From the NCBI GenBank assembly GCA_965198115.1, contig OZ240241.1, positions 6,976,001 to 7,040,000 of the forward strand: a stretch of 64,000 nucleotides of DNA, written 5' to 3'. Positions 11,369 to 27,744 of this stretch are shown piece by piece (the first letter of the stretch is position 1; every line of letters starts with the position of its first letter). The stretch is from Candidatus Latescibacterota bacterium. Lineage in GTDB: Bacteria > Latescibacterota > UBA2968. The position numbers were made by a program, and so were the translations under genes. Below the pieces are notes generated by a model that saw only the letters and a list, made by a program, of their open reading frames with translations, was not told the DNA's origin and did no database searches.

Positions 11369-14300
11369 ATGACCTTCAAGAAAATTGGAAGCCTTTTACT
11401 GGGAGCCCTGATGGTTGTGGGGTTGTCCAGCGCCGTTTCTGCCCAGACGATTCTGGAAGACGGCGATGGCGTCCGACTACGTGTTACAAACCCCGATAAC
11501 GGCGGATTCGCCGGGATCGGCAAGACTGTCGAAGTCGAAGTGCATTACCTGACTTCGATTGCTCCAACCAATATTCATGTGGCCATCGTGACGGACACGA
11601 CCGGCATTGAGGCGGACGAGTTTTCGGGAGGGACCCTGAATGATGCCAACCTGTTCGACGGCGCGTTCTTCGAAGAGGCCGCGATAGTCGATGATGTCCT
11701 CACGATCACTGTGGCCGATGGCGACAATGTCGTTCCCGAGGCGGTCAGTGGTGAAACTTCGTTCAGCAAAATTGTGTTCAAGTTCGAGGTGGAGGCTTCG
11801 GTGGATGTGTCGAGCAGCTCGGCCACGCTGTCCGCCGTCGCATACGTTGACAACCTCATCGAAACCGAGGGACAGGTGTTCAGCAACCTTGACACCGATG
11901 TGCCGACCATCACGGGCGACACAGGTGGTACGACCTTCGGTTTCGTGGGTGATGGTGTACAATTCGGCATCGACGCCACCCGTCCGACGGGTGTCATCAC
12001 GAACGTCTTCATCGATGCTAACGTCGCGGATACCGACGGTGACGATATACTCGATGGTGCCGGTGCCAAGAAGAGCCAGATTTTCAATCCCGGTTGGCTA
12101 ACGGGGATTGTTGATAATAACTTGAATGACGATATAGTGCCGATCGCGAAAGTCGACGACTTCGGTGACCTCGCTGCCTTGATTGAGGACATTGATGTTT
12201 CGACGGCTATGAATGGCCGACTGGAACTTACAGGTGGAGAACCCGTTTTCGCGGACATACCCGTCACGGCAATTAACGTTGGCGACGATCTAACGGTCAG
12301 CTTCAGGGTGACGAACCCCCCGTCGGGAGCTACCGGCGTGGTCTACATCGCCGACCCAGTCGATGTCATGGCAGGTAACGCCGCTGACAGTTCGATCTTC
12401 ACCTTCACCTTCACCTTTCTCGAGCTACTTGAAGGCACGGTCCGTGATTCAATCACGGTCGACTCTGGTTTGGTCGATGTGCTCGCGGAGGGTGATCCCA
12501 AGTTCGTCGGGAATAACCGGCGCATTATGGCCGCCGCATTCCTGGCGGATCGAGCGGGTAACCTGAGCGGGGCAACCGCTGACGCGGATGATCCCTTAGC
12601 TGAGACCGACCCGAACATTCACGTGCTCGATCTCACGCCTGCGACGATCACGCCGGTGCGGCCGAAGACGGCGACGGGCGAACTTCCCGACAGCAGCCGG
12701 TTCACGGCACTGGCCAAGAGCAGCATCTCCATCGTCGACCTGGTGAACGGTACGACTTCTCCGGACGTCGACTTCAATCTCAATCCGTTCGAGTTGTCGG
12801 TCGATGAAGGACTCACGGACATTCAGGTGACCTTCGTGACCGGTGGTGACGAAATTTCCCTGTCGTACAAAGAGAGGAACAACGCCGGCGATCTCGACAA
12901 CGATGTTATCGAAGACGCAGGCCTGGATCCGGCGCTCATCGCCGCGACCGACGAGTTGGTGGACGGCAATGGCGACGGCGTGCCCGACGCTGCGGTCAAG
13001 TTCGACCTCAGCAGTCTGATCATCGACCCGGATGCCGACGGCGATCTCAAGCGCGAAACGAACAAACAGGGCGGTCACAAGGGGTCGTGGACGGTCACGG
13101 TCGTGGACAGCGCCGGTAACGTGACCCACGACACGCAAGCGGATATCTGGTTCGACGGCGTCGCTCCGGATACGATGGATGCGAACTACTTCCCGACGGA
13201 GGCCGGAGCGCCCAGGGATCAGGACACCGACGTTCCGACGATCACTTCGGAAACGTCGGCTGTCGTGCTTAGGCTGTCCGAGGCATTGGACTCCCTGGCT
13301 GTCCAGTATGTCGAGAACACGGCGGTTTCGCCCACTACGTCCCTCATTCGCGTTCCACCGGGCGATGTGAATTTGGCTATAACGGACTCGCCGATCACAC
13401 TGACGCTTTCCGATTCGCTCATAACTGGCGAAGAGTACAAGCTCCAGGTCTTCCAGCGCGATCTTGCGGGCAACGTCAGCATGACGGCCGCCCAGACTCT
13501 GTTGTACGACAACGAATTCCCGAACCCCGAAGCCAGCGAGTTCAAGGTCGTGCAGGACAACAAGGATGTGGTCGCCGGTCAGTCAATGACCATCACAGTC
13601 ACGGCTCTGGACAGTGCTATGACGGCGGATATAGGTTCTGAGGTTGTTGACGTCACGTACGGTACTGAGGCATTCATTCGCATCGAGGAAGTTGTTTCGG
13701 CGAAGAAAGCGGCTCACATCACCTATACGTTCGATGGTGACGGTGTGACCGACAACGAGGATGGTACGGCCACACTCGACACTGACAACTGGAACCTCGG
13801 TGTGCGAGATGTCGACATTGTTTCGACGGGAATCATCGAAGCTTTCATCGCGATCGTGGAGGACAAGACGGGTGACGATGTCAACTTCGATGGCCAGACG
13901 GCGGATACGCTGAGTGTCGAGGCTGCGGATTTCCGTGCCTTCGCAGTGAAGGTGCTGGAAGACGGTGTCGAAACGGATGAAGTTTCTGGTGAGTTCACCG
14001 TTTGGGTACATCCAACGGATATCCACGGCAACATGAGCGCCAAGCTGTTTGAAGAGGGAGTCGGCACGACGCCCGTGGAAGCGGATTCGCTGAAGTTGTT
14101 GGAAGCGAATATTAAACCGGCCAATGTGCTTGCGGAGATATTTGTCGAGTTATCGGCTAGCGTCGGCGATGTGGTTCCGCCGCCAGGCCCGCAAGCTTTG
14201 CCCAGAGAAGGCTACGCCTTCACCGCCACTGCTCCAGACCGCGCAGGTGAAGGTCTCGTGATTACGGTCCGTTCTGTCGATGGCGGCACGCTCGGTTTCA

Positions 14301-16348
14301 CGGATGATGTCAATGAAAAGTTCAAATTGGCTACCGGATCTAGTGAGTCACTCACCTTCACGCCGTTCGGTGAAGTTCCGCCGCCGCCGTTGCCCGACCT
14401 CGTAGCTCCGGCAACCCTGATCGTTCAGGACTACCTCGGAGCCGACGGGCTGGGCGATCAGGGTGGATTCGTGATCGTGTCTTACACTGCCTCTGAGGGT
14501 GCTGCGCGTCATCGCCTCTATCGCAAGATCCCGGTTCGGGCCGGACGGGACGAGAATGGCGACTTGGTTGCATTTGAGCCATTTGAGACACCGGTTGACA
14601 TGTGGGTGCCTTGGGCGTCGTTCGATGCTGCCGCTGATGATGACGGCATTGGACGTAGTGTCGTTCCAACGCTCGATAACGTCGCATCGAGCTGGGCCAT
14701 CACAGCAGAGCGTGGCGGTGCCTCTTCGGGGCAAACGGTTGCATCGAAGCGTGTGTTCACGAAGCAACTCGTTCAGAATATGGTCTCGTTCCTCGGCGTC
14801 GATCCGAACCGTGTCCTCTCAACAGAGGAACTCGGCGAGGTCTTTGCACCGTCAGAGGACTATGTGAAATCGATCATCGGTGACCAGAAGGACGTTCAGT
14901 TCACGGCCCTCGATATCGACTTTACAGCGCTGGTCGGTGGAGCCAACACGGTTCCGCAGTCCATCCGCACGCAGACCAGTCCGATTCAGTCTTCGGCCCG
15001 CACGGAAACAGATGCACCCGTGAAGGCCGTTGACAACCTGCCCCCCGCCGCTGTCGAAGGCGCTGCCGGTACATTCGACGGTGCCAACGTCAGCCTTGAG
15101 TGGCAGGTGTCGAGTGACGACCGCGTGGTGGGTAGCATGAGTTATCTCGGCCACTCGATTCCGATCGCGGGTGTGGATCGCTACGAAGTGTGGCGTGGCG
15201 AGAGTGTAGACGCGCTGGAACTCTATGACACCGTAGAGGCTGGCGAAACCACCTTCCTCGATCAGGAAGTCCCGGGCTTTTCGTCCGTGATTTACCGGAT
15301 CGATGCGGCTGATCTCGATAACGTCACACAGGGAACCGCGGTCACGATGGAACTCCTCACCTCGAGGATTCCCTACGAGACAGCTGATGGTCTCCCGGTG
15401 TATATCATCCTCGTGAATGGTGCGACGCCCTTGACGCAGGACTTCGAGGACTTCATTGCCTTCGCGGGTGCATTCCAGAAGTCGGCTGGTGAGTCAGGAT
15501 TCCTGTTCCAGGCCGATACCGACGACAGCGGCACGATCGACTTTACAGACTTCCTGGGCTTTGCCGGCGCCTTCCAGCGCGAGGCAGTTGCTCCGGCAGG
15601 GATGAAGGTCGTTCCCGCAATGCTGTTGCCCGGTGTGAACGACAACGTCGAGCTCGCACTCAGCTTGAGTGACAGCAAGGTACTCGCTGGTCAGACCGTG
15701 ACGGTAAACGTCGCCCTGGCCAACGCTGCCGCGCTCAACGGCTTCGGTTTCGAGCTGCTCTACGATGCGGATAAGTTTGAGTATGTCGAATCCGCAGCGG
15801 CCGAGCAGGATCTGCTGAAGTCCGGTGGTGCGGACACGCCGCTGTTCCTCGCTCACCAGGAAGAGGTCGGCCAGCTGATGATCGCCAACGCGATCGTCGA
15901 CGGCGCGCCAGTTTCGGGTGAGGGTGAGGTTGTGAGCCTGACGTTCAAGGTGCTTCAGGAGTTCGAGGAGAACGCACGGTTCGAGATCGCTGACGGTATC
16001 GTGTTCGATCACGAGCAGCTTTCGAACCCGGTCGTCGCCCTCGGCAGCCTGAGCGTCGAAAGCACCCCGACGGAGTTCGCGTTGCTGCAGAACTTCCCGA
16101 ACCCGTTCAACCCTGAAACCACGATCAAGTACAACCTCGCCGAAGGGACGAACGTCAGCCTCCGCATTTACAATGTGGTCGGTCAGGTCGTTCGCACGCT
16201 CGTCGCTGAGCCCCAGACGGCAGGTCGCTACACGGTCCGGTGGAACGGAACGGACGATCGAGGGGTGTCCGTATCGAGTGGGATCTACTTCTACGAACTC
16301 CGTAGCAGCGGATTCCAGGACGTCAAGAAGCTGATGCTGCTGAAGTAA
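11369..16348 (+). CDS. 1659-aa acidic secreted surface protein: Ig-like repeats, dockerin-like EF-hand pair, cohesin-like domain, FlgD-Ig/T9SS-type C-terminal domain
   Basis: SD AAGGAGAGG; signal peptide ending AVSA|Q; repeated D.AGN Ig-type motifs; DFEDFIAFAGAF...DTDDSGTIDFTDFLGFAGAF; VTVNVALANAAALNGFGFELLYDADKFEYV; LLQNFPNPFNPETTIKY...WNG.DD.G..VSSGIYFY...KLMLLK. Confidence 0.88.
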   Translation: MTFKKIGSLLLGALMVVGLSSAVSAQTILEDGDGVRLRVTNPDNGGFAGIGKTVEVEVHYLTSIAPTNIHVAIVTDTTGIEADEFSGGTLNDANLFDGAFFEEAAIVDDVLTITVADGDNVVPEAVSGETSFSKIVFKFEVEASVDVSSSSATLSAVAYVDNLIETEGQVFSNLDTDVPTITGDTGGTTFGFVGDGVQFGIDATRPTGVITNVFIDANVADTDGDDILDGAGAKKSQIFNPGWLTGIVDNNLNDDIVPIAKVDDFGDLAALIEDIDVSTAMNGRLELTGGEPVFADIPVTAINVGDDLTVSFRVTNPPSGATGVVYIADPVDVMAGNAADSSIFTFTFTFLELLEGTVRDSITVDSGLVDVLAEGDPKFVGNNRRIMAAAFLADRAGNLSGATADADDPLAETDPNIHVLDLTPATITPVRPKTATGELPDSSRFTALAKSSISIVDLVNGTTSPDVDFNLNPFELSVDEGLTDIQVTFVTGGDEISLSYKERNNAGDLDNDVIEDAGLDPALIAATDELVDGNGDGVPDAAVKFDLSSLIIDPDADGDLKRETNKQGGHKGSWTVTVVDSAGNVTHDTQADIWFDGVAPDTMDANYFPTEAGAPRDQDTDVPTITSETSAVVLRLSEALDSLAVQYVENTAVSPTTSLIRVPPGDVNLAITDSPITLTLSDSLITGEEYKLQVFQRDLAGNVSMTAAQTLLYDNEFPNPEASEFKVVQDNKDVVAGQSMTITVTALDSAMTADIGSEVVDVTYGTEAFIRIEEVVSAKKAAHITYTFDGDGVTDNEDGTATLDTDNWNLGVRDVDIVSTGIIEAFIAIVEDKTGDDVNFDGQTADTLSVEAADFRAFAVKVLEDGVETDEVSGEFTVWVHPTDIHGNMSAKLFEEGVGTTPVEADSLKLLEANIKPANVLAEIFVELSASVGDVVPPPGPQALPREGYAFTATAPDRAGEGLVITVRSVDGGTLGFTDDVNEKFKLATGSSESLTFTPFGEVPPPPLPDLVAPATLIVQDYLGADGLGDQGGFVIVSYTASEGAARHRLYRKIPVRAGRDENGDLVAFEPFETPVDMWVPWASFDAAADDDGIGRSVVPTLDNVASSWAITAERGGASSGQTVASKRVFTKQLVQNMVSFLGVDPNRVLSTEELGEVFAPSEDYVKSIIGDQKDVQFTALDIDFTALVGGANTVPQSIRTQTSPIQSSARTETDAPVKAVDNLPPAAVEGAAGTFDGANVSLEWQVSSDDRVVGSMSYLGHSIPIAGVDRYEVWRGESVDALELYDTVEAGETTFLDQEVPGFSSVIYRIDAADLDNVTQGTAVTMELLTSRIPYETADGLPVYIILVNGATPLTQDFEDFIAFAGAFQKSAGESGFLFQADTDDSGTIDFTDFLGFAGAFQREAVAPAGMKVVPAMLLPGVNDNVELALSLSDSKVLAGQTVTVNVALANAAALNGFGFELLYDADKFEYVESAAAEQDLLKSGGADTPLFLAHQEEVGQLMIANAIVDGAPVSGEGEVVSLTFKVLQEFEENARFEIADGIVFDHEQLSNPVVALGSLSVESTPTEFALLQNFPNPFNPETTIKYNLAEGTNVSLRIYNVVGQVVRTLVAEPQTAGRYTVRWNGTDDRGVSVSSGIYFYELRSSGFQDVKKLMLLK

Positions 16349-16364
16349 CAGCACCAGTATACGG

Positions 16365-16394
16365 AGCGGGAGCCAGAGTCATCTGGCTCCCGCT
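16365..16394 (+). other. 13-bp intergenic stem-loop without U-tract
   Basis: AGCGGGAGCCAGA-GTCA-TCTGGCTCCCGCT between the two surface-protein genes. Confidence 0.7.
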
Positions 16395-16426
16395 TCACAC
16401 AGCCAGGAAATAGAGAGCAAGTTTTA

Positions 16427-17866
16427 ATGGAAGGAACGAAGATGGTGAAGAAAGGGATGATGGCATTAGCCGTCCTGCTTTTCCTGGTGCACAGCGCGCA
16501 CGCGGGACCTAATGCGGCCGCTGTACCGTCACTGGACTTGACGGCCGGAAACTCAACGGACGATGGGGTGACGGTTGCGACTGATGTCGCCGAAGGCACG
16601 GCGATCCAGGTCGAGGTCTTCGCGACGGGGATCGCATCGACACTTCTGGGTATGAATCTCGAATTCACGGTGGATCAGGCCGTGGTCACCGCCGTTGGTT
16701 ATAGCGGCCCATTCGATATTCCACTCGTACAGGACACGAGTGTGGGCGCGGTGAGCTTTTCAGGCCCAGTCACGATTGATGCCGCAGGCTTCCTCGGAAC
16801 GGTGACTTTCGCTCCGGCGGCTGGCGTGACGACAAGCACTGAGTTCGAGATCACATTGGCGTCGATCGTTCTTGGCGATGCCAATCAAGTTCGAGATACA
16901 CTCTCGGTAACGGGCGTGACGTCGACGCTGACGTTTAACCAGGCGCCTCCGGGTCCTCTGGAACTCAGTGGCCCTGCCGATCCGATCGATACGATGGGAT
17001 CGGGAACGGCCGATATCGCCATTGCCAATCTGACGAGCGGCGACACGATCGAATGGACCGTGTCAGTCACGGGCGGTGCTGGCGCGGTTGCTGGAGTAAC
17101 AGGTCAGAGCGGATCGGCATCGATCGGCACAGAGTTTACGTTCAGTACCACGGCGAGCGCTGCGACAGAGACGATCACGCTCGAGGCTAGCGGAGCCAAC
17201 TCCACCGTAACGGTTTCGGCGTCGGTCAACGGCACGGCGATCGGCACCTTTGCGGTGGTGTTCAGCCAGCTGTCGGCGGCCGAGCTCTCCTCCTTTGGTG
17301 GTGAGATCGTCGAAGAGGCGGTCGTGCTCAACTGGACGACTGTTTCGCAGACGAACAACGCCGGTTGGCGTGTGCTTCGGAGTGAAGACGGCGTAACCTA
17401 TACGCCCGTCAGTGATCTCATTCCGGGCGCCGGGACGACGGACGCGACACTTCCTTACCAATTCCAGGATGAGGATGTGCCGGCTGTGGAGCTGATCTAC
17501 TATCGCCTCGAGCAGGTCGATCTGGACGGTCGCATTTCGCAGACCAGCCCGATCGAGGTCATTCTGGGCGCGCGTTTCCTCGACTTGCCGAGTGACTTCG
17601 GGACGAGCATCTACCCGAATCCGTTCAACCCCAGCACGACGATCGCCTACAACCTTCCGTCAGAGGCATCTGTTTCGATCGTGATTTACGACGCACTCGG
17701 CCAGGAAGTTCGCCGGCTGATCAGCGAGACGAAATCTGCTGGACGTTACACGATTCGGTGGGATGCGCGTGACAATCTTGGACGCGGCGTCGGTAGTGGC
17801 GTTTACATTGCCAAGGTCGAGGCCGGACAGTTTTCGGCTGCGCAGAAGATGCTGCTCCTGAAGTAA
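16427..17866 (+). CDS. Secreted protein with N-terminal cohesin-like domain and FlgD-Ig/T9SS-type C-terminal domain
   Basis: Signal peptide ending AHA|; IQVEVFATG...GMNLEFTVD; ELSSF...LNWTTVSQTNNAGWRVLRS...YYRLEQVDLDG pre-CTD module; YPNPFNPSTTI...WDARD..G..VGSGVY...KMLLLK. Confidence 0.85.
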   Translation: MEGTKMVKKGMMALAVLLFLVHSAHAGPNAAAVPSLDLTAGNSTDDGVTVATDVAEGTAIQVEVFATGIASTLLGMNLEFTVDQAVVTAVGYSGPFDIPLVQDTSVGAVSFSGPVTIDAAGFLGTVTFAPAAGVTTSTEFEITLASIVLGDANQVRDTLSVTGVTSTLTFNQAPPGPLELSGPADPIDTMGSGTADIAIANLTSGDTIEWTVSVTGGAGAVAGVTGQSGSASIGTEFTFSTTASAATETITLEASGANSTVTVSASVNGTAIGTFAVVFSQLSAAELSSFGGEIVEEAVVLNWTTVSQTNNAGWRVLRSEDGVTYTPVSDLIPGAGTTDATLPYQFQDEDVPAVELIYYRLEQVDLDGRISQTSPIEVILGARFLDLPSDFGTSIYPNPFNPSTTIAYNLPSEASVSIVIYDALGQEVRRLISETKSAGRYTIRWDARDNLGRGVGSGVYIAKVEAGQFSAAQKMLLLK

Positions 17867-17927: not shown

Positions 17928-18949
17928 GGCTCTATCCGGGTTTCTCAACGGTGAAACTATAGAATGACAAGGTCATAGATCGTTCCTTACGCTTGGTTGT
18001 GTCCGAGTTACTGCGCATCTCTGCCTCGACGCTGTCGGATCTCCTTCACCGATCCATCACGCGGCTTCGTGAAGGTCATCGTATCCGAGGGCTCAAAACC
18101 ATCGGGATCGACGAGATCTCCTACGCCAAGCGTCACAGGTACGCCACGCTCGTTTACGATCTGGACCGCTCCTGCGTGGTGTGGGTTGGCCGCGGCAGGG
18201 CGCGTAAAACGATCGATCGGTTCTTCACAGAGGCTCTCAGTCCCTACCGGAGATCCAAGATCGAGTGGGCCTGCTGCGACATGAGCGAAGCTTACATCGG
18301 AGCCATCCAGGAACACTGTCCGAATGCCAAGCTGGTCCTCGATCGCTTTCACATCGTCAAGGCTCTCAATGCCGCCGTTGACGAGGTCCGTAAGGACCAG
18401 TGGCGTGAAGCTGCCCCGGATGAGCGCAAAGCCATGAAGGGCCTCCGATGGCTCCTCTACCGGCACTCAGCGACACGCTCCAGAGGGGATACCCGGACAC
18501 TCAAAGCACTGGAGAAGGCGAACTACCGAATCTATAGAGCCTGGAGACTCAAGGACGAGTTCGAGCAGTTCTGGGAATACAAAGCGCCCTGGGCTGCCGA
18601 ACGCTTCCTGAAATGCTGGACGACGTCCGCACTCAGAAGTCGACTTGAACCCCTGCGAAAGTTCGTCAGGACCCTGCGACAGCACTTCTTCGGCGTCCTC
18701 GCATTCGTGAACACGCGTCTTACCAACGCCATCGCCGAAGGCCTCAACCGAATCGTCCAAATCGTCAAGAACCGAGCCAGCGGATTCCGCACACTCGACG
18801 CATTCAACGATATGATCTTCCTTACCGTCGGAGACATAAACATCCCTGAGCAGATTCCGAAGAGGTTCCGCACACTCTAACCGCGCCCCCATGCCAGGAA
18901 CCACGGCACCTTCACCCACTTCATCTCGTTGAGAGATCCGGATATAGCC
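17928..18949 (+). mobile_element. ISL3-family insertion sequence (internally deleted, 1022 bp)
   Basis: Terminal IRs GGCTCTATCCGGGTTTCTCAACG and (rc) GGCTATATCCGGATCTCTCAACG, 20/23 match; T8 on both sides (17920-27, 18950-57) as 8-bp TSD. Confidence 0.9.
17993..18880 (+). CDS. ISL3 transposase, N-terminally truncated
   Basis: IGIDEIS..K.H.Y.T, CCDMS..Y, DRFHIV, TNAIAEGLN..I...K..ASGFR. 295 aa, shorter than the usual ~400+ aa; no N-terminal Zn finger. Confidence 0.88.
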   Translation: MVVSELLRISASTLSDLLHRSITRLREGHRIRGLKTIGIDEISYAKRHRYATLVYDLDRSCVVWVGRGRARKTIDRFFTEALSPYRRSKIEWACCDMSEAYIGAIQEHCPNAKLVLDRFHIVKALNAAVDEVRKDQWREAAPDERKAMKGLRWLLYRHSATRSRGDTRTLKALEKANYRIYRAWRLKDEFEQFWEYKAPWAAERFLKCWTTSALRSRLEPLRKFVRTLRQHFFGVLAFVNTRLTNAIAEGLNRIVQIVKNRASGFRTLDAFNDMIFLTVGDINIPEQIPKRFRTL

Positions 18950-18971: not shown

Positions 18972-19961
18972 GTGGAGGAGACTCGAATCGGGCTGATCGG
19001 ATGCGGCAGCAACATGACAGGACATCTGCGACGGCTGGTCAACATTGTTCAGGCGAGGGTCGTGGCGCTTTCGGATCCGTCAGAGGAAAGTACCGCACGG
19101 ATGCGAGATCGGGTCGAAGAAGCGGGCGACCTGCCCCACTACGATGATCACGAGAAGATGATTGCAAATGAAGACTTGGATGCGGTGGTGATTTCCTCGC
19201 CGCATACGCTTCACTACGAGCAGATCGTCGCGGGACTAGAGGCGGGGTTGCACGTGCTGACCGAGAAACCGATGGTGTGCACTGTGGCCCACGCGAAGGC
19301 GGTGATCGCGAAGAGCGAGGAAGTCGATCGGATTCTGATGGTCTCCTACCAGCGCCATCTCGCCCCAACGTTCCGGTTCATGCGCAATCAGATCGCATCG
19401 GGAGAGATCGGTCCCGTGCAGTTCGTCAACGCTCTCCAAGACCAGAATTGGTATCGAAGCCAACAGGGCAAGTGGCGCCAAGTGGCGTCGCTTTCGGGTG
19501 GCGGGCAACTCAATGACTCAGGAAGTCATCTGCTCGATATCGTCCTGTGGATCGTGGATCAGGATCCTGTCGAGGTGAGCGCGCAGATGGAGTATTTCGA
19601 GGCCGAAGTCGACATCAACACATCAATGACGGTTCGATTCGAAAGCGGAGCCATTGCGAGCTTTTCCGTCGTGGGGAATGGTCCCGGACCGGGTATGTGG
19701 GAGGATATTACGATCTGGGGTCAGCACGGTGCCTTCTATTCCCGTAACGGGGCGCTGACCTGCAAGTATGGTTCCGATCCGGTCGAGATGACGGACTTGC
19801 CGACACGATTCTCGAGCCCCGACCAGAACTTCGTGGACGCCATCCACGGTCACGATGCGGTCCAGGTGCCGCCTGAATGCGGGTTGCGGGTGATTCAGCT
19901 GACCGAAGCGGCCTGGGCGTCCGCCGAACAGGGCGGGAGGCCGGTTGTGGTTACGCGCTGA
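18972..19961 (+). CDS. Gfo/Idh/MocA family oxidoreductase
   Basis: IGLIGCG, HVLTEKPM, GGGQLNDSGSHLLD. Confidence 0.92.
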   Translation: MEETRIGLIGCGSNMTGHLRRLVNIVQARVVALSDPSEESTARMRDRVEEAGDLPHYDDHEKMIANEDLDAVVISSPHTLHYEQIVAGLEAGLHVLTEKPMVCTVAHAKAVIAKSEEVDRILMVSYQRHLAPTFRFMRNQIASGEIGPVQFVNALQDQNWYRSQQGKWRQVASLSGGGQLNDSGSHLLDIVLWIVDQDPVEVSAQMEYFEAEVDINTSMTVRFESGAIASFSVVGNGPGPGMWEDITIWGQHGAFYSRNGALTCKYGSDPVEMTDLPTRFSSPDQNFVDAIHGHDAVQVPPECGLRVIQLTEAAWASAEQGGRPVVVTR

Positions 19962-19964
19962 GTG

Positions 19965-19993
19965 TTGACAACCCGTCGCTGCCCGGCTACTTT
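19965..19993 (+). promoter_or_regulatory. Sigma70-type promoter
   Basis: TTGACA (19965-70), 17 nt, TACTTT (19988-93). Confidence 0.55.
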
Positions 19994-20031
19994 TCATGTG
20001 TACTGTGGTCCACCCCTGGAGACGAGTCCCC

Positions 20032-20358
20032 GTGCAGGTGAGGAGTATCGAATTCCAGGAAAACTTCCGGAGCGTCACGGTCGAAGCCTCTCGACAGCAG
20101 AATGTCGTTCAAAGGGAGGCCGAGATCGCCCAGCATCAGGCTTCTGCCGCTGGACTGGAAGAGCAGGTTCTGAATCCTTCACGTCCACGCCCGGCGACGG
20201 AAACGGAAGGCCGCATTGTCGATCCTGATGCCCGTGGTCGGGAATCCGAACGGTAAACCTCCCGACGCCAGGGCTCTCGCGCGGGTGACGATTCAGACGC
20301 GGATTCGGAGTCTTCACGGGGTCTCCCCCGGGGTTCGTTGGTCGACATTACGGCCTGA
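20032..20358 (+). pseudogene. Small hypothetical protein with in-frame TAA (20254-56), ending G..VDITA
   Basis: VQVRSIEFQ...ESER*TSRRQ...RGSLVDITA*. Promoter upstream; terminator 25 nt after the second stop. Confidence 0.55.
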
Positions 20359-20382
20359 ATCCCCGACAAGCTTGGCCAGGAT

Positions 20383-20410
20383 GCCGTTCCTCTTGGGGAG
20401 CGGCTTTTTT
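20383..20410 (+). terminator. Rho-independent terminator
   Basis: GCCGTTCCTC-TTG-GGGAGCGGC followed by a T-run. Confidence 0.75.
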
Positions 20411-20470
20411 ATGTGATTCTGATGAACATAACACATTGATTGTTAAATAGTTATACTTCCTTGCCCTGTC

Positions 20471-20499
20471 TTGACTTTGGGTGGGGGCTATGCTAAACT
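20471..20499 (+). promoter_or_regulatory. Sigma70 promoter (extended -10) for the proteasome operon
   Basis: TTGACT, 17 nt, TAAACT with TG-n immediately upstream. Confidence 0.65.
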
Positions 20500-20540
20500 A
20501 ATCGAACGGCCCGGCGCTCACCGCTCAGATCCACGGGGAG

Positions 20541-22265
20541 GTGGTCTCGATCAACCTGCAAGACGATCAGAATCAACAACGGCGCACGCCTGAGGATTTC
20601 CTTCAGGACTACGTCGACATGCAGCACACATTCGAGTCGCTCACGATCATCGATCAGATCCTTATGTCGATGGACGAGAAGGACCGACGACGGCCCCTTC
20701 TCTACCAGCTCCGGAGGCAATTGCAGGAAGATGAGATCACGTTCGAGGAGGCCCGTCGCGCGATCGTCGAGTTGGAGTCCGCGCTCGAAAAGGTCACGGC
20801 CCCGTCGAACCGCATCGGTATCCTTCTCGAGGCCGTCCAGAACGACGTTGCGTGTATTTCGGTGGGGGGCTCCGAATATTTCGCCAACGTCGACACTCGC
20901 ATCAACGACGACGATCTCAGGGTTGGAACGCGCGTGCTCGTGAACGAAGCCTTCGCGGTCGTGGGTGACCTGGGCTATCCGCAGGGCGGGCCGCTTGCCA
21001 AAGTCCTGGACGTGATGGACGATGGCAGGATTCGCGTTGGACAGGAACACGGCACCCAAACAACAATCCTCACGCGATCGACGGATCTGATCGATCAAGA
21101 GCTGAAGACGGGCGAGGAATTGCGGGTCGATCCAACTTTCCGTGTGGCGATCGAACGGATTCCGAACGCCGAGGTCAACGACTACTACCTGGAAGAGATT
21201 CCTCAACTGCCGTGGGACAAGATCGGTGGCCAGGACGAGGCCATCCAGGCCATCAAAGACACGATCGAGATTCCCGTGTTGCATCCCGATCTGTTCGAAC
21301 GGTTCCAGTACAGCACGCCGAGGGGCTTCCTGCTGTTTGGACCTCCCGGGTGCGGAAAGACGCGGATCGGAAAGGCCACAGCTTACAATTTGGCCAAGCA
21401 CATCAAGGAGGAGTCCAAGCTCTCGCTGAAGCAATGTTTCATGCACATCAAAGGTCCCGAGATTCTGAACATGTGGTTGGGCGAGTCCGAGCGCCAGGTG
21501 CGCGAGATCTTTGCGAGGGCACGCGAAAAGAGGAAAGAGGGCTATCTACCGGTCGTCTTCATCGATGAGGCAGAATCGATCCTGGGTACCCGCCGTGCCA
21601 TGCGATCGCACAGCATCAGCAACACCGTGGTCCCGATGTTTTGTGCAGAAATGGACGGGATCGAGTCGCTCCAGGACGTCGTTATCATCCTGGCTTCGAA
21701 TCGCCCCGATCTGATCGATCCGGCGATTCTGAGACCCGGGCGCGTGGACCGCAAGATCAAGGTGATCCGGCCCGATCAAGAGGGTGCAACCGAAATTCTG
21801 AAAATCTACTTGACGTCCGACCTGCCAATTTGCGAGGTCGATGTAACCGCCGAGGGCGGCCACACGCAGCCAGTGATCGACCGATACGTGAATGAGATGG
21901 TGTCCGAGATTTTCGCGCGTCGCGACGATACGCGCTTTCTCGAAGTGACCTTGCGGAGTGGACGCAAAGAGACGCTCCACCGTGGCGATTTGTGCAGTGG
22001 AGCCGTTCTAGAATCGATTGTTCGCCGGAGCAAGGAACTGGCGATCCTTAGGTCGATCGCCGCTGGCGAGGAAGAGGGCATCTCACACGACGACCTCATG
22101 GGGGCCATCGCGACCGAATACGCCGAGAACGAAATTTTCCCTCCGACGGACAACACCGAGGACTGGCTAAAGTTGCTGGACTACGATCCAGAAAACGTGG
22201 TGCGTGTGTCCCCGATCCGACCGCAAACGGACCGGCGGAGGTCGACGTCGCAGCGCGTGATCTGA
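20541..22265 (+). CDS. arc: Proteasome-associated AAA ATPase (ARC/Mpa-like)
   Basis: N-terminal coiled coil and OB region; GPPGCGKT; F.HIKGPEILN.WLGESERQ; FIDEAES; SNRPDLIDPAILRPGR.D.KI. Confidence 0.95.
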   Translation: MVSINLQDDQNQQRRTPEDFLQDYVDMQHTFESLTIIDQILMSMDEKDRRRPLLYQLRRQLQEDEITFEEARRAIVELESALEKVTAPSNRIGILLEAVQNDVACISVGGSEYFANVDTRINDDDLRVGTRVLVNEAFAVVGDLGYPQGGPLAKVLDVMDDGRIRVGQEHGTQTTILTRSTDLIDQELKTGEELRVDPTFRVAIERIPNAEVNDYYLEEIPQLPWDKIGGQDEAIQAIKDTIEIPVLHPDLFERFQYSTPRGFLLFGPPGCGKTRIGKATAYNLAKHIKEESKLSLKQCFMHIKGPEILNMWLGESERQVREIFARAREKRKEGYLPVVFIDEAESILGTRRAMRSHSISNTVVPMFCAEMDGIESLQDVVIILASNRPDLIDPAILRPGRVDRKIKVIRPDQEGATEILKIYLTSDLPICEVDVTAEGGHTQPVIDRYVNEMVSEIFARRDDTRFLEVTLRSGRKETLHRGDLCSGAVLESIVRRSKELAILRSIAAGEEEGISHDDLMGAIATEYAENEIFPPTDNTEDWLKLLDYDPENVVRVSPIRPQTDRRRSTSQRVI

Positions 22266-23821
22266 TGTCGATGGAGCGAATCTTCGGGATCGAGACGGAG
22301 TATGGCATTACGATCGACGGCGTCGACAAGATGGATGTCGTCGAGGAGTCGATGCAGCTCATTCGGTGTTACTTGCAGGGCGATTTCGTTCCGTTGTGGG
22401 ACTATCAGCTCGAGAATCCGCGAAAGGATGTGCGTGGTTTCGAAGTCGACGAGTTGCTGAACGACACGGATGAAAAGGTACATCTGCAGCAGGATCGACA
22501 GCGCAAGATCCCGTTCAAGGAACTCAAGAGCGACCTGGTCATCTACAATGGAGCGCGTTTCTACAACGACCATACGCATCCCGAGTATTCGACGGGCGAG
22601 TGCACGGGCCTGTTCGAGCTCGTGGCACACGATAAAGCCGGCGAGCGTATCGTCAGCATTTGCGCCGAACGACGCACCGAAGCGCTAAAGACCGGAGAGG
22701 TCCGCGTTTACAAGAACAACACGGATTTCGAAGGTCACAGCTATGGCTGTCACGAGAACTATCTTATGGGCCGCCAGGTGCCCTTCGATCGAATCGTGGC
22801 AGGGTTGCTCCCGTTTTTCGCGACGCGTCAGATTTTCGCGGGAGCAGGAAAGGTCGGGGAGGAGCGCGGCGACCGGGCGCCAATCTACCAGCTGTCACAA
22901 CGGTCCGAGTTTTTCGAGGTCATCGCGAGCGTCGACACGATGCACAAGCGGCCGCTCGTGAACACGCGGGACGAGCCGCACGCGGATTCGGAACGTTGGC
23001 GTCGACTCCACGTCATCATCGGCGATGCCAACATGTCGGAATTCGTGACGGCGTTGAAGGTGGGCACGACCGCGCTGGTCGTCGACCTGATCGAATCAGA
23101 TCGGCTGCCGGACTTCCAGCTGCGGGATCCGATAGCGGCCCTCCGAAACGTCGCGAAAGACCAGACTTACCAGTGGCTGGTCGAGGTGGAGGGTCACCCC
23201 AACCGGTTGGTATCCTCCGTCGACGTGCAACGGGAGTATCTGAACCTGGCGCAAGAAGATTACGCGGGTCGAGATGAGGAGACGGATTGGGTGCTTCGCT
23301 CGTGGGGAGAGATCCTCGACGCGCTCGAAGCGGATCCCCTTTCCCTCGTGGGCACGCTCGATTGGGTCACCAAAAAGTTTCTGATCGATTCGTTTTGCGA
23401 AGAAGAAGGCCTGTCGTGGGATAACCCCGATCATCTTTTCTGGATGCAAAGCCAGGATCTGGAGTATCATAATGTCGATCAAACACAAGGTCTCTACTAT
23501 CTCCTGGAATCCCAGGGACAATTCGTGAGGCTGGTCGACGACGGCGAAATTGCGACGGCGATGGCCGAGCCCCCGCGACGTACACGCGCATATTTTCGGG
23601 GTCGTTCGCTGGAGAAGTTCAGGGACGAGGTCAAATCGATCAATTGGGACCGGATCGTGTTCGGTTTGAACGGCAAGCACGAGTCGATCGACCTCAAACC
23701 GATGGTCGATTCGGAGCTGGCGCATCGATGTAACAACGTGTTGGATGCGTCCGAATCGGTCGCTGAGCTTTTTCACGGTTTGCAGAAAGTCGAAATGCAT
23801 CCTACCGCGGCGCTGACCTGA
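22265..23821 (+). CDS. dop: Dop-like depupylase/deamidase (PafA2)
   Basis: GIETEYG, Dop loop (W.Y..E.P..D.RGF), NGARFYNDHTHPEYST, KNNTD..G.SYGCHENY, RRLHVIIGDAN. Confidence 0.92.
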   Translation: MSMERIFGIETEYGITIDGVDKMDVVEESMQLIRCYLQGDFVPLWDYQLENPRKDVRGFEVDELLNDTDEKVHLQQDRQRKIPFKELKSDLVIYNGARFYNDHTHPEYSTGECTGLFELVAHDKAGERIVSICAERRTEALKTGEVRVYKNNTDFEGHSYGCHENYLMGRQVPFDRIVAGLLPFFATRQIFAGAGKVGEERGDRAPIYQLSQRSEFFEVIASVDTMHKRPLVNTRDEPHADSERWRRLHVIIGDANMSEFVTALKVGTTALVVDLIESDRLPDFQLRDPIAALRNVAKDQTYQWLVEVEGHPNRLVSSVDVQREYLNLAQEDYAGRDEETDWVLRSWGEILDALEADPLSLVGTLDWVTKKFLIDSFCEEEGLSWDNPDHLFWMQSQDLEYHNVDQTQGLYYLLESQGQFVRLVDDGEIATAMAEPPRRTRAYFRGRSLEKFRDEVKSINWDRIVFGLNGKHESIDLKPMVDSELAHRCNNVLDASESVAELFHGLQKVEMHPTAALT

Positions 23822-23851
23822 AGCCCGGAATGGACAATCACGGAGGCAACC

Positions 23852-24037
23852 ATGTCAAAGTGGATTGAATACGAAAGACGCACACGCCCGGTACCGGGCG
23901 AGGGGCCCGACGGTGATGACGAATCCGGCCCGACCCGGCCGAAGGTGGAGCGTCCAGACACGCGCGACCTGTTGAAGCGCATGCGTCGTGTCGATCCAAA
24001 CCAGGCGCGACGCTACCGGCAAAGGACAGGAGAATAA
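23852..24037 (+). CDS. ubact: Ubiquitin-like protein UBact
   Basis: SD GGAGG; 61 aa; LLKRMRRVDPNQARRYRQRTGE with the C-terminal R[T/S]G[E/Q] signature; occupies the pup position. Confidence 0.93.
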   Translation: MSKWIEYERRTRPVPGEGPDGDDESGPTRPKVERPDTRDLLKRMRRVDPNQARRYRQRTGE

Positions 24038-24044
24038 GCGCCGC

Positions 24045-24830
24045 ATGAGTGATGGCGGCGATTTTTTCGATCTCCTGAAGTCGGAGGGTTATCGGTTTCC
24101 GGCGAACGTCGTTTCGGGGGTCGAGCCCGATGCGAAGGGTCTGCCGTTCCAGCCGACCGAGGGGACGACGATCCTCGCCCTCCGTTATCGTGACGGCGTG
24201 GTGGTGGCCGGTGATCGGCGGGCGACGGCGGGCAACGCCGTTCTCTACGATCGCGCGGACAAGGTCATTTCGATCGATCGCAATTCTGTCATGGCGATTT
24301 CGGGTTCACCGGCCATGGCGTTCGAGATCGCCAGAATCCTCGAGCACTCCTTCCAGTATCACCGACGACGCCAGCTGCAGGAAATGAGCATGGAAGCAAA
24401 GCTCCGTCGTCTCTCCCTCCTGATTCGTGACAATTTACCCATGGCGGTCCAGGGAATCGGCGCGGTCATCCCGATCTTTGCCACCTACGATCTCCAGAGT
24501 GACGTCGGTCGCATTTACTTTTACGATGCCCTCGGCGCTCAGTTCGAGGTAGCGGATTTCGCGACGACGGGGTCGGGTGCCGCTGCGATTCGGGGAGCCA
24601 TGTATTACACGAACCGGTGGAGCGGAACGCCCTATCCCGAGCTGGGTCGTGACGATGCCGTCGGATTGTCACTGCGTCTTTTGTATACCGCGTCGGAATA
24701 CGATTCTGCGACCGGCCGTTACGAACGATCGACGGATATCCTCCCGACCGTCAAGACGATCACATCGGACGGCCAGGATGACATCGAGCCGGATGAACTT
24801 CGCGATCTTCACGCCCGGTTCCTGGACTGA
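24045..24830 (+). CDS. prcB: 20S proteasome beta subunit
   Basis: Propeptide, then G|TTILAL...AGDRRAT.G, DKV, TGSG, D.ATG. Confidence 0.95.
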   Translation: MSDGGDFFDLLKSEGYRFPANVVSGVEPDAKGLPFQPTEGTTILALRYRDGVVVAGDRRATAGNAVLYDRADKVISIDRNSVMAISGSPAMAFEIARILEHSFQYHRRRQLQEMSMEAKLRRLSLLIRDNLPMAVQGIGAVIPIFATYDLQSDVGRIYFYDALGAQFEVADFATTGSGAAAIRGAMYYTNRWSGTPYPELGRDDAVGLSLRLLYTASEYDSATGRYERSTDILPTVKTITSDGQDDIEPDELRDLHARFLD

Positions 24831-25621
24831 TGATGCTGCTGGACGAACCCTATCGCTTCGCCGAAGCGATCGCGAATCGGCGCGATTACATCGAGGATCA
24901 ATTGCGGGGTGGCAGTCCCGTGGTCGGTCTGGCGTTCGCCGACGGCTTGCTCGTCGTCACGCTACGCGGTGGCTCTCAAAAGCTGTTCGAGGCATACGAT
25001 CGTATCGGTCTCGGGTCCGTCGGTCATCCTACCGACATCGAAAAGCTTCGTCAGTCGGCGGTCGATCTCGCCCACGTGATCGGGTTCAACTACTCCGATA
25101 CGGATGTCACGCTTCAACAGATCGTACATTTCGGACTCGGGCCGGCCGTGAAGACCTCGTTTGACGACGTCATACGGTCCCCCTATATTGCGCGCGTTCT
25201 GCTGGCCGAGCTCGGATGGGCGGACGCTGAATCCTCGTTCTACACGGTCGACTACGACGGGACGTTCAATCGGTTCGAGGGTGCGGCTGCCATCGGCGGT
25301 CTGCCAGAATCCGATGGGATCATGCGGGACCACATGCTCGAAGCGAATCCCGCGAACCACTCGCTCGAGGCCGCTGTTTCACTCGCGCTCGAGGCCTGGG
25401 GAATCGGTCGGTGGGTTGGCGAGCAGGATAGCTTACCAGCCGACGATGAAGACTTGAAGTCCGCCTCCGCAGATGCCGATACGGCAGCGCCGCTGCGTGA
25501 TGGCTTGCAGACGCTGGAAATCGAAGCAGCAGTCTTAGACCCGTCCTTGACGGGGAAATCCAAGTTTCGCCACGTAAAGGCAGAGGAAATCGAATCTGTC
25601 CTTGCGTCCATAAAGGGGTAG
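24830..25621 (+). CDS. prcA: 20S proteasome alpha subunit
   Basis: EPY...RRDY...GSPVV, KLFE.YDRI...G...D, EAAVLD...FR; no catalytic Thr. Confidence 0.92.
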   Translation: MMLLDEPYRFAEAIANRRDYIEDQLRGGSPVVGLAFADGLLVVTLRGGSQKLFEAYDRIGLGSVGHPTDIEKLRQSAVDLAHVIGFNYSDTDVTLQQIVHFGLGPAVKTSFDDVIRSPYIARVLLAELGWADAESSFYTVDYDGTFNRFEGAAAIGGLPESDGIMRDHMLEANPANHSLEAAVSLALEAWGIGRWVGEQDSLPADDEDLKSASADADTAAPLRDGLQTLEIEAAVLDPSLTGKSKFRHVKAEEIESVLASIKG

Positions 25622-25650
25622 TGGTCGAACCAGCCCCTCGTCCACATTTC

Positions 25651-25677
25651 GCCGGGCCTTGCGAGGTCTGGTTTTTT
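25651..25677 (+). terminator. Putative intrinsic terminator between prcA and pafA
   Basis: GCCGGGCCT-TGCG-AGGTCTGGT (G:U-rich stem) followed by a T-run. Confidence 0.5.
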
Positions 25678-25689
25678 GTTTGATTGCCC

Positions 25690-27162
25690 ATGGAAGATCG
25701 CATCTTCGGACTGGAAACCGAATACGGCTGTATGGCGCCGGAACACGAGGGATTCGTGAGTCCGGATGCGATCTCCGTAAAGGTGAAGGACCATATCTTC
25801 CACTCCGAGCGGATCGGTATCGTGGACATTCACTACCGCGGTCGAGATGAACCGCCAGGGAACGGCGGCTTCCTCTACAACTCGGGTCGTGTCTACATCG
25901 ACATGGGCCACATCGAGTATACGACCCCGGAGTGCAAGGGTCTGTTCGATGTCGTCGCTTTCGATCGTGCTGGCGAACGGATCCTTCAGCGGGCGCTCAA
26001 GTCACTCGGTCTGGAGAAAGAAGCGGCGTTTTTGAAGAACAATGTCGACCACTTCACGGGTGCGACATTCGGCTGCCACGAGAACTATCTGGTTCGGCGG
26101 AACGTGCCTTTCTCGACGGTGGTCATTCCGTCTCTGCTTCCCTTCCTGGTGACCCGTCAGATCTTCGCCGGCGCCGGACGCGTGGGCAGCTATGACGACA
26201 GCTTCTACTACTACGGTCGGGAAGACCGCGAGGAGGCCTATCGCGAGGACCCCGTCGCCTACCAGATCTCGCAGCGTGCCGACCACATCGTGACCGAGAT
26301 CTACCAATGGATTCAGTTTTCGCGGGCGATCATCAACACGCGAGACGAGCCGTTGGCAGACCATAGCCGGTTCCGGCGACTCCATCTGTTGGTGGGTGAC
26401 TCCAACATGTCGGAATACGCCGCCGCTCTAAAGATCGGAACGACAGCCATGGTCCTAAACCTCCTGGAACGGAAGGTGTTTCCGAGGGACGTGGGGTTGA
26501 CCGATCCCGTGTGGGCCCTGAAGGAAGTCTCGCGGGACCCGACCCACCGCTGGCTTTTGGAGCGGAGCGATGGACGCACGCTGACAGCAGTCGATATCCA
26601 AAGGTCGTATCTGGAGCTCGCACAGCGCCACCTGGTGGGCATTGACGACGAGTCGGATTGGGTGTTGCAAGAATGGGAGCGCACGTTGGACGATTTGGAA
26701 CGCGATCCAATGTCGTGCGTGGACCGCGTCGACTGGGTGACGAAAAAGTGGCTGCTCGATATGTTCCGCGAAGAGGAAGGACTATCGTGGAGCGATCCGT
26801 GGATGCAGAGCTTGGATCTGGAGTATCACAACATCAATCCGGACAAGAGTCTCTACTACGATCTGGAGCGCCAGGGTTCGATCCAGCGTGTCGTGAAAGA
26901 CGATCACATCGATCGGGCGAGCTTCGAGCCGCCGCAGGACACCCGGGCCAAGGGCCGCTCACGGCTCGTCAAGGTTCTATCGGAAAATCGCGTTCGTTAC
27001 ATCGTAGACTGGGATTCGGTGTATCTGGAGAACGAACATCACCTGAGTTTTCGGGATCCGTTCGAGACGTATGATGACGAGGTCGATGAATTCGTGGAGG
27101 AGATCAGGAACGCGTCGAACGCGCCTCCGTCACCGGGGTCGATGCGAAGACCCCCCAGATAG
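25690..27162 (+). CDS. pafA: PafA-like UBact/Pup-protein ligase
   Basis: GLETEYG, FL.N.GR.YIDMGH.EYTTPEC, KNN.D...TFGCHENY, R.IINTRDEP.AD, RRLH..VGDSNM, DLEYH, PP.DTRA. Confidence 0.93.
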   Translation: MEDRIFGLETEYGCMAPEHEGFVSPDAISVKVKDHIFHSERIGIVDIHYRGRDEPPGNGGFLYNSGRVYIDMGHIEYTTPECKGLFDVVAFDRAGERILQRALKSLGLEKEAAFLKNNVDHFTGATFGCHENYLVRRNVPFSTVVIPSLLPFLVTRQIFAGAGRVGSYDDSFYYYGREDREEAYREDPVAYQISQRADHIVTEIYQWIQFSRAIINTRDEPLADHSRFRRLHLLVGDSNMSEYAAALKIGTTAMVLNLLERKVFPRDVGLTDPVWALKEVSRDPTHRWLLERSDGRTLTAVDIQRSYLELAQRHLVGIDDESDWVLQEWERTLDDLERDPMSCVDRVDWVTKKWLLDMFREEEGLSWSDPWMQSLDLEYHNINPDKSLYYDLERQGSIQRVVKDDHIDRASFEPPQDTRAKGRSRLVKVLSENRVRYIVDWDSVYLENEHHLSFRDPFETYDDEVDEFVEEIRNASNAPPSPGSMRRPPR

Positions 27163-27188
27163 AGAAACGAACTGAAACGTTTACCGAC

Positions 27189-27216
27189 GGCCGATCCTCG
27201 ACGAGGGTCGGCCTTT
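27189..27216 (+). terminator. Terminator hairpin after pafA
   Basis: GGCCGATCCTCG-A-CGAGGGTCGGCC-TTT. Confidence 0.65.
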
Positions 27217-27225
27217 CGCTTGTCA

Positions 27226-27744
27226 TCACCGGTATCGTCGACCGCCACGTCGGGCGATGGATAGATGCTGACGGGCCAAAGCCTGGCTCGATCGATCGAG
27301 GGTGGTGAAGTCGGGGATTGCGTACCGCCGTGCCGAGTCACCGTCCGTGAGGACGACGCGCGGAAAGGCCCGTGTATCCGCGTCCCCATCCCCGCGAATC
27401 AGGAGCTCATACTCTCCTTCCTCCGTGTCGACGAGACAGCGTGCGCCTTCGGGCCTCCTGTCGACGCTGACGATTCGGGTGATCTCGGGAACGTGATACT
27501 TCTCGCGCATGAGACGGCCGATCACGCGCCGACTGTCGCCGTCGAGCTCAGCAAGATCGGGAATCAGGCCGATTTCCGAGCCCCGTGCATCGCGAAGGGA
27601 GATCCAGAGACCGGAGTTGGATTCGGGAAAGCATTGCACGATAGACACCCCGCTTACCGTGACGTTCTGATGCTGGAGGCAGATGACATTGCTGTCCTGG
27701 GAGATTGTGAGCACTGCTGGGTCGAGGATCGTGTTGGCTGTCAC
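27226..27744 (-). CDS. DUF1854 domain protein
   Basis: CFP.S...ISL.D..G.EIG.I..L.ELD..SR......Y..P.IT.I, VDT..G, D...RY.IPD...LD..S. GTG start just after the ABC gene. Confidence 0.82.
   Translation of the reverse strand: MTANTILDPAVLTISQDSNVICLQHQNVTVSGVSIVQCFPESNSGLWISLRDARGSEIGLIPDLAELDGDSRRVIGRLMREKYHVPEITRIVSVDRRPEGARCLVDTEEGEYELLIRGDGDADTRAFPRVVLTDGDSARRYAIPDFTTLDRSSQALARQHLSIARRGGRRYR

Follow-up and report, generated by a model that had tools for sequence, protein, structure and literature searches.

The window analysed here is a stretch of 64,000 nucleotides from Candidatus Latescibacterota bacterium (GTDB lineage Bacteria; Latescibacterota; UBA2968; GenBank assembly GCA_965198115.1, contig OZ240241.1, positions 6,976,001 to 7,040,000 of the forward strand), and at positions 20541-27162 it carries, all on the + strand, six open reading frames (ORFs) in the order arc-dop-ubact-prcB-prcA-pafA, an operon of the UBact conjugation-proteasome type (Table 1). 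The operon is intact and of an already catalogued kind; the locus adds nothing to the catalogue, and nothing in this copy is special. We consider it probable that the product of the last gene ligates UBact through Glu61 to lysines, that ARC unfolds the tagged targets into PrcBA via a tyrosine-free contact, and that Dop recycles the tag. The UBact class of Gram-negative bacteria was reportedly named by Lehmann, Udasin, Livneh and Ciechanover in 2017 (doi 10.1016/j.bbrc.2017.01.037).

An earlier interpretation, made from the letters alone and called here the sequence-only reading, had described six intact and ordered genes, and the coordinates, strand and open frames were all confirmed. The six ORFs contain no stops or frameshifts, with 1-base overlaps (TGATG) at arc/dop and prcB/prcA, and each gene is single-copy in the one-contig genome of 8.43 Mb, which encodes exactly two members of the Pup-ligase family. 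In sequencing run X1, one contig covers the operon stretch with 0 differing letters; it is not an independent confirmation, because X1 may be the source sample. Among the NCBIfam scores, UBact alone exceeds its cut-off, and all five enzymes fall below the actinobacterial cut-offs.

Table 1. Features of the UBact operon and its borders, in window coordinates.
Feature	Position	Strand	Description
predicted promoter	20471..20499	+	sigma-70-type TTGACT-17-TAAACT, extended -10 TG
arc	20541..22265	+	ARC/Mpa-type AAA+ unfoldase, 574 amino acids (aa), GTG start; TIGR03689 470.7 bits (cut-off 504.75)
dop	22265..23821	+	Dop-type deamidase/deconjugase, 518 aa; TIGR03688 (Dop) 455.8 (cut-off 492.3) vs TIGR03686 (PafA) 365
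ubact	23852..24037	+	basic tag, 61 aa, isoelectric point 10.1, ends RQRTGE; NF033388 82.8 bits (cut-off 35), PF20513 78.6 (cut-off 27.8)
prcB	24045..24830	+	20S beta subunit, 261 aa; TIGR03690 169.2 bits, PDB matches
prcA	24830..25621	+	20S alpha subunit, 263 aa; TIGR03691 74.2 bits
terminator-like stem-loop + T-run	25651..25677	+	between prcA and pafA, possible attenuator
pafA-like gene	25690..27162	+	490 aa, presumed UBact ligase; TIGR03686 375.9, TIGR03688 370.5
terminator-like hairpin	27189..27223	+	11-pair stem, closes operon

Conservation was assessed in two sets of loci: the best 80 of 186 related loci found with the last gene, which come mostly from Latescibacterota, and 78 metagenome loci yielded by a second scan seeded with a UBact listed at NCBI under a Methylacidithermus. 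The tag, whose gene ends in the codons GGA GAA TAA, has an N-terminal half of proline, glycine and acidic residues and a nearly invariant basic C-terminal half, the net charge over the last 30 residues of UBact ranging from +3 to +7. Its C-terminus is RQRTG[EQ] in 78/78 genome loci and QR[TS]G[EQ] in 75 of 76 metagenome ORFs, R[ST]G[EQ] being what we take to be the UBact motif. The last residue is Glu or Gln in 78/78, 120/120 and 75/76 tags of three sets, the genome loci having Glu in 51 cases and Gln in 27, and the metagenome ORFs Glu in 37, Gln in 38 and another ending in 1. In a quick tree built from 139 PrcB rows, this residue switches between E and Q 12 times, at least 7 of the switches being forced by well-supported branches. 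According to a passage of PMC2588565, a terminal E or Q represents the chemistry needed by a carboxylate-amine ligase.

A search of the genome for Pup (PF05639) gave 0 matches, the control search having matched in C. glutamicum, and a PDB sequence search with UBact gave 0 matches at E up to 10. NCBI names the entries of relatives 'ubiquitin-like protein UBact [Candidatus Latescibacterota]'. With the RQRTGE end in place and both UBact models passed, the identification of the tag in the sequence-only reading is borne out. The same holds for the conservation of the 61-residue ORF in relatives, which that reading had made decisive: comparison with 77 relatives gives a ratio of nonsynonymous to synonymous differences per site (pN/pS) of 0.08 for the last 30 codons, uncorrected and with synonymous sites close to saturation, and the tag ORF, as judged from its codons, is conserved and under purifying selection. 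One relative has two tandem UBact matches (G026:C69:7179-7576), the second weaker and lying in a 168-aa frame.

Unfoldase, proteasome and paired enzymes

The ARC protein has an acidic N-terminal coiled-coil segment and two OB domains, with Pfam matches to OB_N, OB_C and AAA, and its Walker A, Walker B and arginine-finger motifs show no variation in 67/67 sequences. Residues 62-85 average a net charge of -3.9 and -3.4 in the two locus sets, which fits the basic tag; in Pup systems, the tag is acidic and the Mpa coiled coil basic. The C-terminal tail is SQRVI in this genome and contains no GQYL/HbYX (hydrophobic-tyrosine-any residue) motif. Counting complete ends only, and leaving out one frameshifted fragment, a penultimate Tyr occurs in 0/74 genome and 0/32 metagenome loci, and the last residue is Val or Ile in all of them. 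On the proteasome side, PrcB has a 40-residue propeptide, and its catalytic Thr41, Asp57 and Lys73, equivalent to Thr1, Asp17 and Lys33, are invariant (78/78 and 66/66). Lys51 of the alpha subunit, which aligns with the docking lysine K52 in the alignment to 3h6f_A, is likewise invariant (79/79 and 49/49); together with the constant Val or Ile at the ARC terminus, this suggests a kept docking contact. The ARC pore loop reads M-W-L-G where Mpa has K340-F341-V342-G343, as given in a passage of PMC8755798.

The positions separating Dop from PafA were scored from Table 1 of PMC7947786, passages of which report that the alpha-loop region decides activity and that loss of the Dop loop favours ligation. 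In the PafA-like enzyme encoded by the last gene, 15 active-site and motif positions are invariant in 27/27 UBact-adjacent copies. Like PafA, the enzyme has lost the His that follows the catalytic Asp in Dop, and it reads D-M-G-H where PafA has D-V-G-S-H; its loop region spans 57 residues, against 87 in its Dop partner and a median of 43 in PafA, and it carries the PafA-type Phe at position 7 and Asp at position 46. The lost His, the short loop and the Phe and Asp residues therefore argue for a ligase, and every locus pairs a single enzyme that has the long loop and the His with a single one that has the short loop and no His. In L108, L110, L111, L116, L120, L125 and L128, a longer D-A-V-G-x-H follows the catalytic Asp, nearer to the D-V-G-S-H of PafA; two of these enzymes, from L108 and L128, were placed in a tree and stay within the UBact ligase group. 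A structure model of the PafA-like enzyme (predicted template modelling score 0.88, from a 49-row alignment) shows the family fold, matching Dop 5lrt with a Z-score of 40.8 (root-mean-square deviation 3.1 over 422 residues) and PafA 4bjr with 38.5 (2.9 over 416 residues), values too close for a function to be assigned from the fold match.

The Dop partner scores just below its family cut-off, has a full-length loop and a D-H-T-H motif, and belongs to a group in which the His adjoining the catalytic Asp is kept in 44/44 UBact Dops. The sequence-only reading had proposed that Dop would act only as the deconjugase. This stands as far as the need of this genome is concerned, since a terminal Glu makes deamidation needless, as described in a passage of PMC3511204 for C. 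glutamicum Pup. It does not extend to the ability of the enzyme: because the last tag residue alternates between E and Q among relatives (Gln in 27/78, 12 switches), Dop enzymes as a family must either have kept deamidation or be able to regain it with ease, and the conserved His and the variable tag terminus indicate that a deamidase ability is likely retained here, though not needed.

Proposed mechanism and its alternatives

The mechanism that we propose starts from six genes which, as read in the sequence, are intact with their catalytic residues. By analogy with the Pup pathway, the PafA-like enzyme would use ATP to phosphorylate Glu61 at its gamma-carboxylate before forming the isopeptide bond. 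The basic C-terminal half of UBact may pair with the acidic ARC coiled coil, and its proline/glycine-rich N-terminus would thread into the ARC pore. ARC would then dock on alpha Lys51 through its terminal carboxylate and the two small hydrophobic residues, Val and Ile, at the end of its tail, without the tyrosine-arginine contact of mycobacteria, and Dop would remove and recycle the tag, deamidation being unneeded here and probably possible.

Several observations weigh against this proposal. In mycobacteria, the tail meets the alpha subunit at R26 through its Tyr and at K52 through its carboxylate, and gate opening requires both the GQYL tail and alpha R26 (passages of bioRxiv 10.1101/249060 and PMC12288473); both features are missing here. 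Nor is the proteasome the sole protease of the host, because two ClpP-family genes are present in its genome. The presumed ligase misses the PafA cut-off (375.9 vs 551.3) and scores 292 bits against solved Dop sequences versus 248 against PafA, its alpha-loop (HIVTEIYQWIQFS) is PafA-like at 2 of 9 positions and Dop-like at 1, and its structure model is unreliable in the alpha-loop region, where the predicted local distance difference test score falls below 50 at residues 164-211. A literature search that reached few subscription papers found no biochemical demonstration of any step.

The docking differences bear on an alternative that we regard as unlikely, in which tagging is real and mostly not for degradation: ARC would unfold or disassemble its targets, Dop would untag them, and the gate would remain unopened by ARC or need another factor. 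Such an arrangement would account for ARC tails that never have a penultimate tyrosine and for an R26 position that is Gly (Gly27 in this genome) or variable, with Arg in 2/79; against it, prcB and prcA stay within the operon with intact catalytic residues, and the invariant docking lysine and the Val or Ile at every tail end suggest that a contact has been kept. Next to it, position 26 holds Arg or Lys in 52/79 and 34/49, which argues against a clean loss of the arginine. Elsewhere in the alpha subunit, Gln or Arg/Lys stands in place of G23, and an aliphatic residue or Thr in place of E119, both positions presumably having a role in the docking pocket. A search of the genome for Bpa/PafE returned no match, though no control matched either.

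The identity of the last gene underlies a further alternative, to which we give little credence: the two paralogues would not divide their work as Dop and PafA do, and the last gene would encode either a ligase confined to a few targets by its conserved aromatic alpha-loop or an enzyme of mixed activity, combining ligation with hydrolysis or transamidation. The sequence-only reading had named this gene pafA without qualification, and it is not a plain PafA, given its near-equal hidden Markov model scores for PafA and Dop; because both scores lie under their cut-offs, we infer the ligase role. The enzyme also does not have the one-residue insertion of PafA; in 20/23 scored UBact copies the residues around the catalytic Asp are spaced as in Dop, and a Trp at alpha-loop position 31, unlike Dop or PafA, occurs in 22/28. 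Mixed Dop/PafA activity has been engineered in the laboratory, as reported in a passage of PMC7947786, and the last gene groups with the UBact Dop in two of the trees described below. What tells against a mixed enzyme is the division of each locus into one long-loop, His-bearing and one short-loop, His-lacking enzyme, the same division and operon positions as in Pup systems, and ligation by the PafA-like enzyme stays the preferred interpretation.

The origin of this ligase was addressed with PafA/Dop phylogenies against Pup systems, as the sequence-only reading had suggested, and the trees fall two each way. From 150 listed representatives, 85 were kept (at least 420 aa, core motifs), and one misaligned row was removed; the reference PafA and Dop rows are labelled mainly by NCBIfam score, not by a neighbouring tag, and few of them carry names. 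The UBact ligase groups with Pup PafA in a FastTree of 104 rows (support 99) and in an IQ-TREE of 28 hand-picked rows with several long branches (89/99). It groups with the UBact Dop in two IQ-TREE analyses of rows from UBact-adjacent loci, with 34 rows (100/98) and with 47 rows (97/99); the unlabelled row P0030 fell on the UBact-Dop side in these trees. Approximately unbiased (AU) tests reject neither arrangement (p 0.216, 0.119 and 0.114). Every tree places the UBact ligases in one well-supported group and the UBact Dops in another, both separate from their actinobacterial counterparts, and, as the trees are without an outgroup, they do not show the direction of change. A single ancient Dop/PafA duplication has been reported from Actinobacteria and Nitrospirae sequences (in a passage of PMC7947786). 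Tentatively, and with more doubt than confidence, we raise the possibility that UBact is a separate invention, in which the ligase would have arisen by its own duplication of a UBact Dop-like enzyme, as a second natural hydrolase/ligase split with a different loop solution, a charge-reversed tag, and an unfoldase with a tyrosine-free tail that opens the proteasome.

Transcription unit, host genome and distribution

The sequence-only reading had placed all six genes under one predicted promoter; a sigma-70-type promoter does precede arc, but a terminator-like hairpin splits prcA from pafA. The promoter-like motif upstream of arc recurs in 18/72 related loci, for a pattern that was picked after the sequences had been seen and that has 23 matches in 2.59 Mb, or about 0.004 per 461-nt window. 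The prcA-pafA stem-loop is shared with the four nearest loci (L001-L004) and not with most others, in which the two genes lie close together or overlap (a gap of 30 nt or less in 46/79), and the 79-nt spacer as a whole folds no better than its shuffles (z -0.57). Where present, the hairpin may lower expression of the ligase relative to the other five genes. Insertions of 1.6-2 kb occur within the operon of L047, L048 and L079 (prcB-prcA, prcA-pafA, dop-ubact).

An Rfam scan of 19800-27500 gave 0 matches, and a non-coding RNA considered upstream of arc was rejected, as the stretch contains a small conserved ORF. This ORF (20032-20358, +) is conserved in L001, L005 and L055, and in this genome a TAA at 20254-20256 interrupts its frame; the L001 copy continues past the TAA position to a similar C-terminal end, and there is no Pfam match. 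It may be a truncated gene, and the terminator-like hairpin at 20383-20410 belongs to it.

A non-actinobacterial host of Gram-negative type had been proposed, and a profile search agrees, with BamA over its cut-off in the genome and the nearest loci belonging to Latescibacterota. LpxC was not found in the complete genome, and the outer membrane may thus lack classical lipid A. The closest relative of the last gene's protein is highly similar, the L001 copy being 97% identical. The six-gene order is identical in 75/80 related loci, the remaining 5 being interrupted by contig ends, and the metagenome loci have the same layout wherever the contig is long enough, so the operon is ordinary for UBact carriers. 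Its description as a ready-made reconstitution target is accordingly not special to this copy, since most relatives carry the same operon. UBact was found in 114 of the 140 genomes searched in the phylum, in 35/52 of the high-quality ones, and in 112/116 genomes of the host's class (f1-f4 and the window's own genome). With this prevalence, no stops or frameshifts, a tag under purifying selection and a conserved promoter, a decayed or silent relic is very improbable.

Conserved flanking genes (a Gfo/Idh oxidoreductase, a signal peptidase, a DUF6263-like gene, a DUF1854 gene and an ABC transporter) were considered as parts of the system and rejected, as they differ between sub-lineages. Upstream of the operon, the window contains, by eye, an ORF resembling a fragment of an ISL3-type transposase (17993-18880, +) and two large secreted-looking proteins of 1659 and 479 aa with similar FlgD-like C-terminal domains (11369-17866, +); a FlgD-domain protein also lies close to the operon in L057. 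Elsewhere in the genome, an array packs 20 tRNA genes into 2 kb (G000:C1:2870558-2872531, -); they duplicate isotypes encoded at other sites, and the array may sit on a mobile element.

Significance and comparison with known systems

The view of UBact as known mainly from genomics agrees with our literature search, which, within its reach of few subscription papers, turned up no bench work on UBact. The interest of the class lies in this gap and in its wide occurrence among uncultured bacteria of sea and soil. It bears on whether tag-and-destroy proteolysis works outside actinobacteria, whether an ATPase tail with no tyrosine can open a proteasome gate, and whether Pup-type ligation arose twice. 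Being basic and served by its own ligase, the tag might also prove orthogonal to Pup and provide a second protein-labelling tool.

Compared with other UBact conjugation-proteasome loci, the operon is the same, with a tag that passes both models, a Dop/PafA-family pair, and ARC and 20S genes around it, and we find no system-level difference. Loci of this kind outside actinobacteria were noted by Iyer et al. (in a passage of PMC2588565). With the Pup-proteasome of Actinomycetota, the operon shares the same six gene families, the enzyme fold, the terminal E/Q chemistry, the beta catalytic residues and the alpha docking lysine, as well as a Dop with the Dop loop and Asp-His motif. It differs in a basic tag without detectable similarity to Pup that ends in [TS]G[EQ] instead of GG[EQ]; in an ARC that, unlike Mpa/ARC of Pup systems, ends in Val/Ile instead of GQYL and has Met at the K340 position; in an alpha subunit that has lost R26 and in which G23 has become Gln/Arg; and in a presumed ligase that has neither the D-V-G-S-H nor the alpha-loop of Pup PafA.

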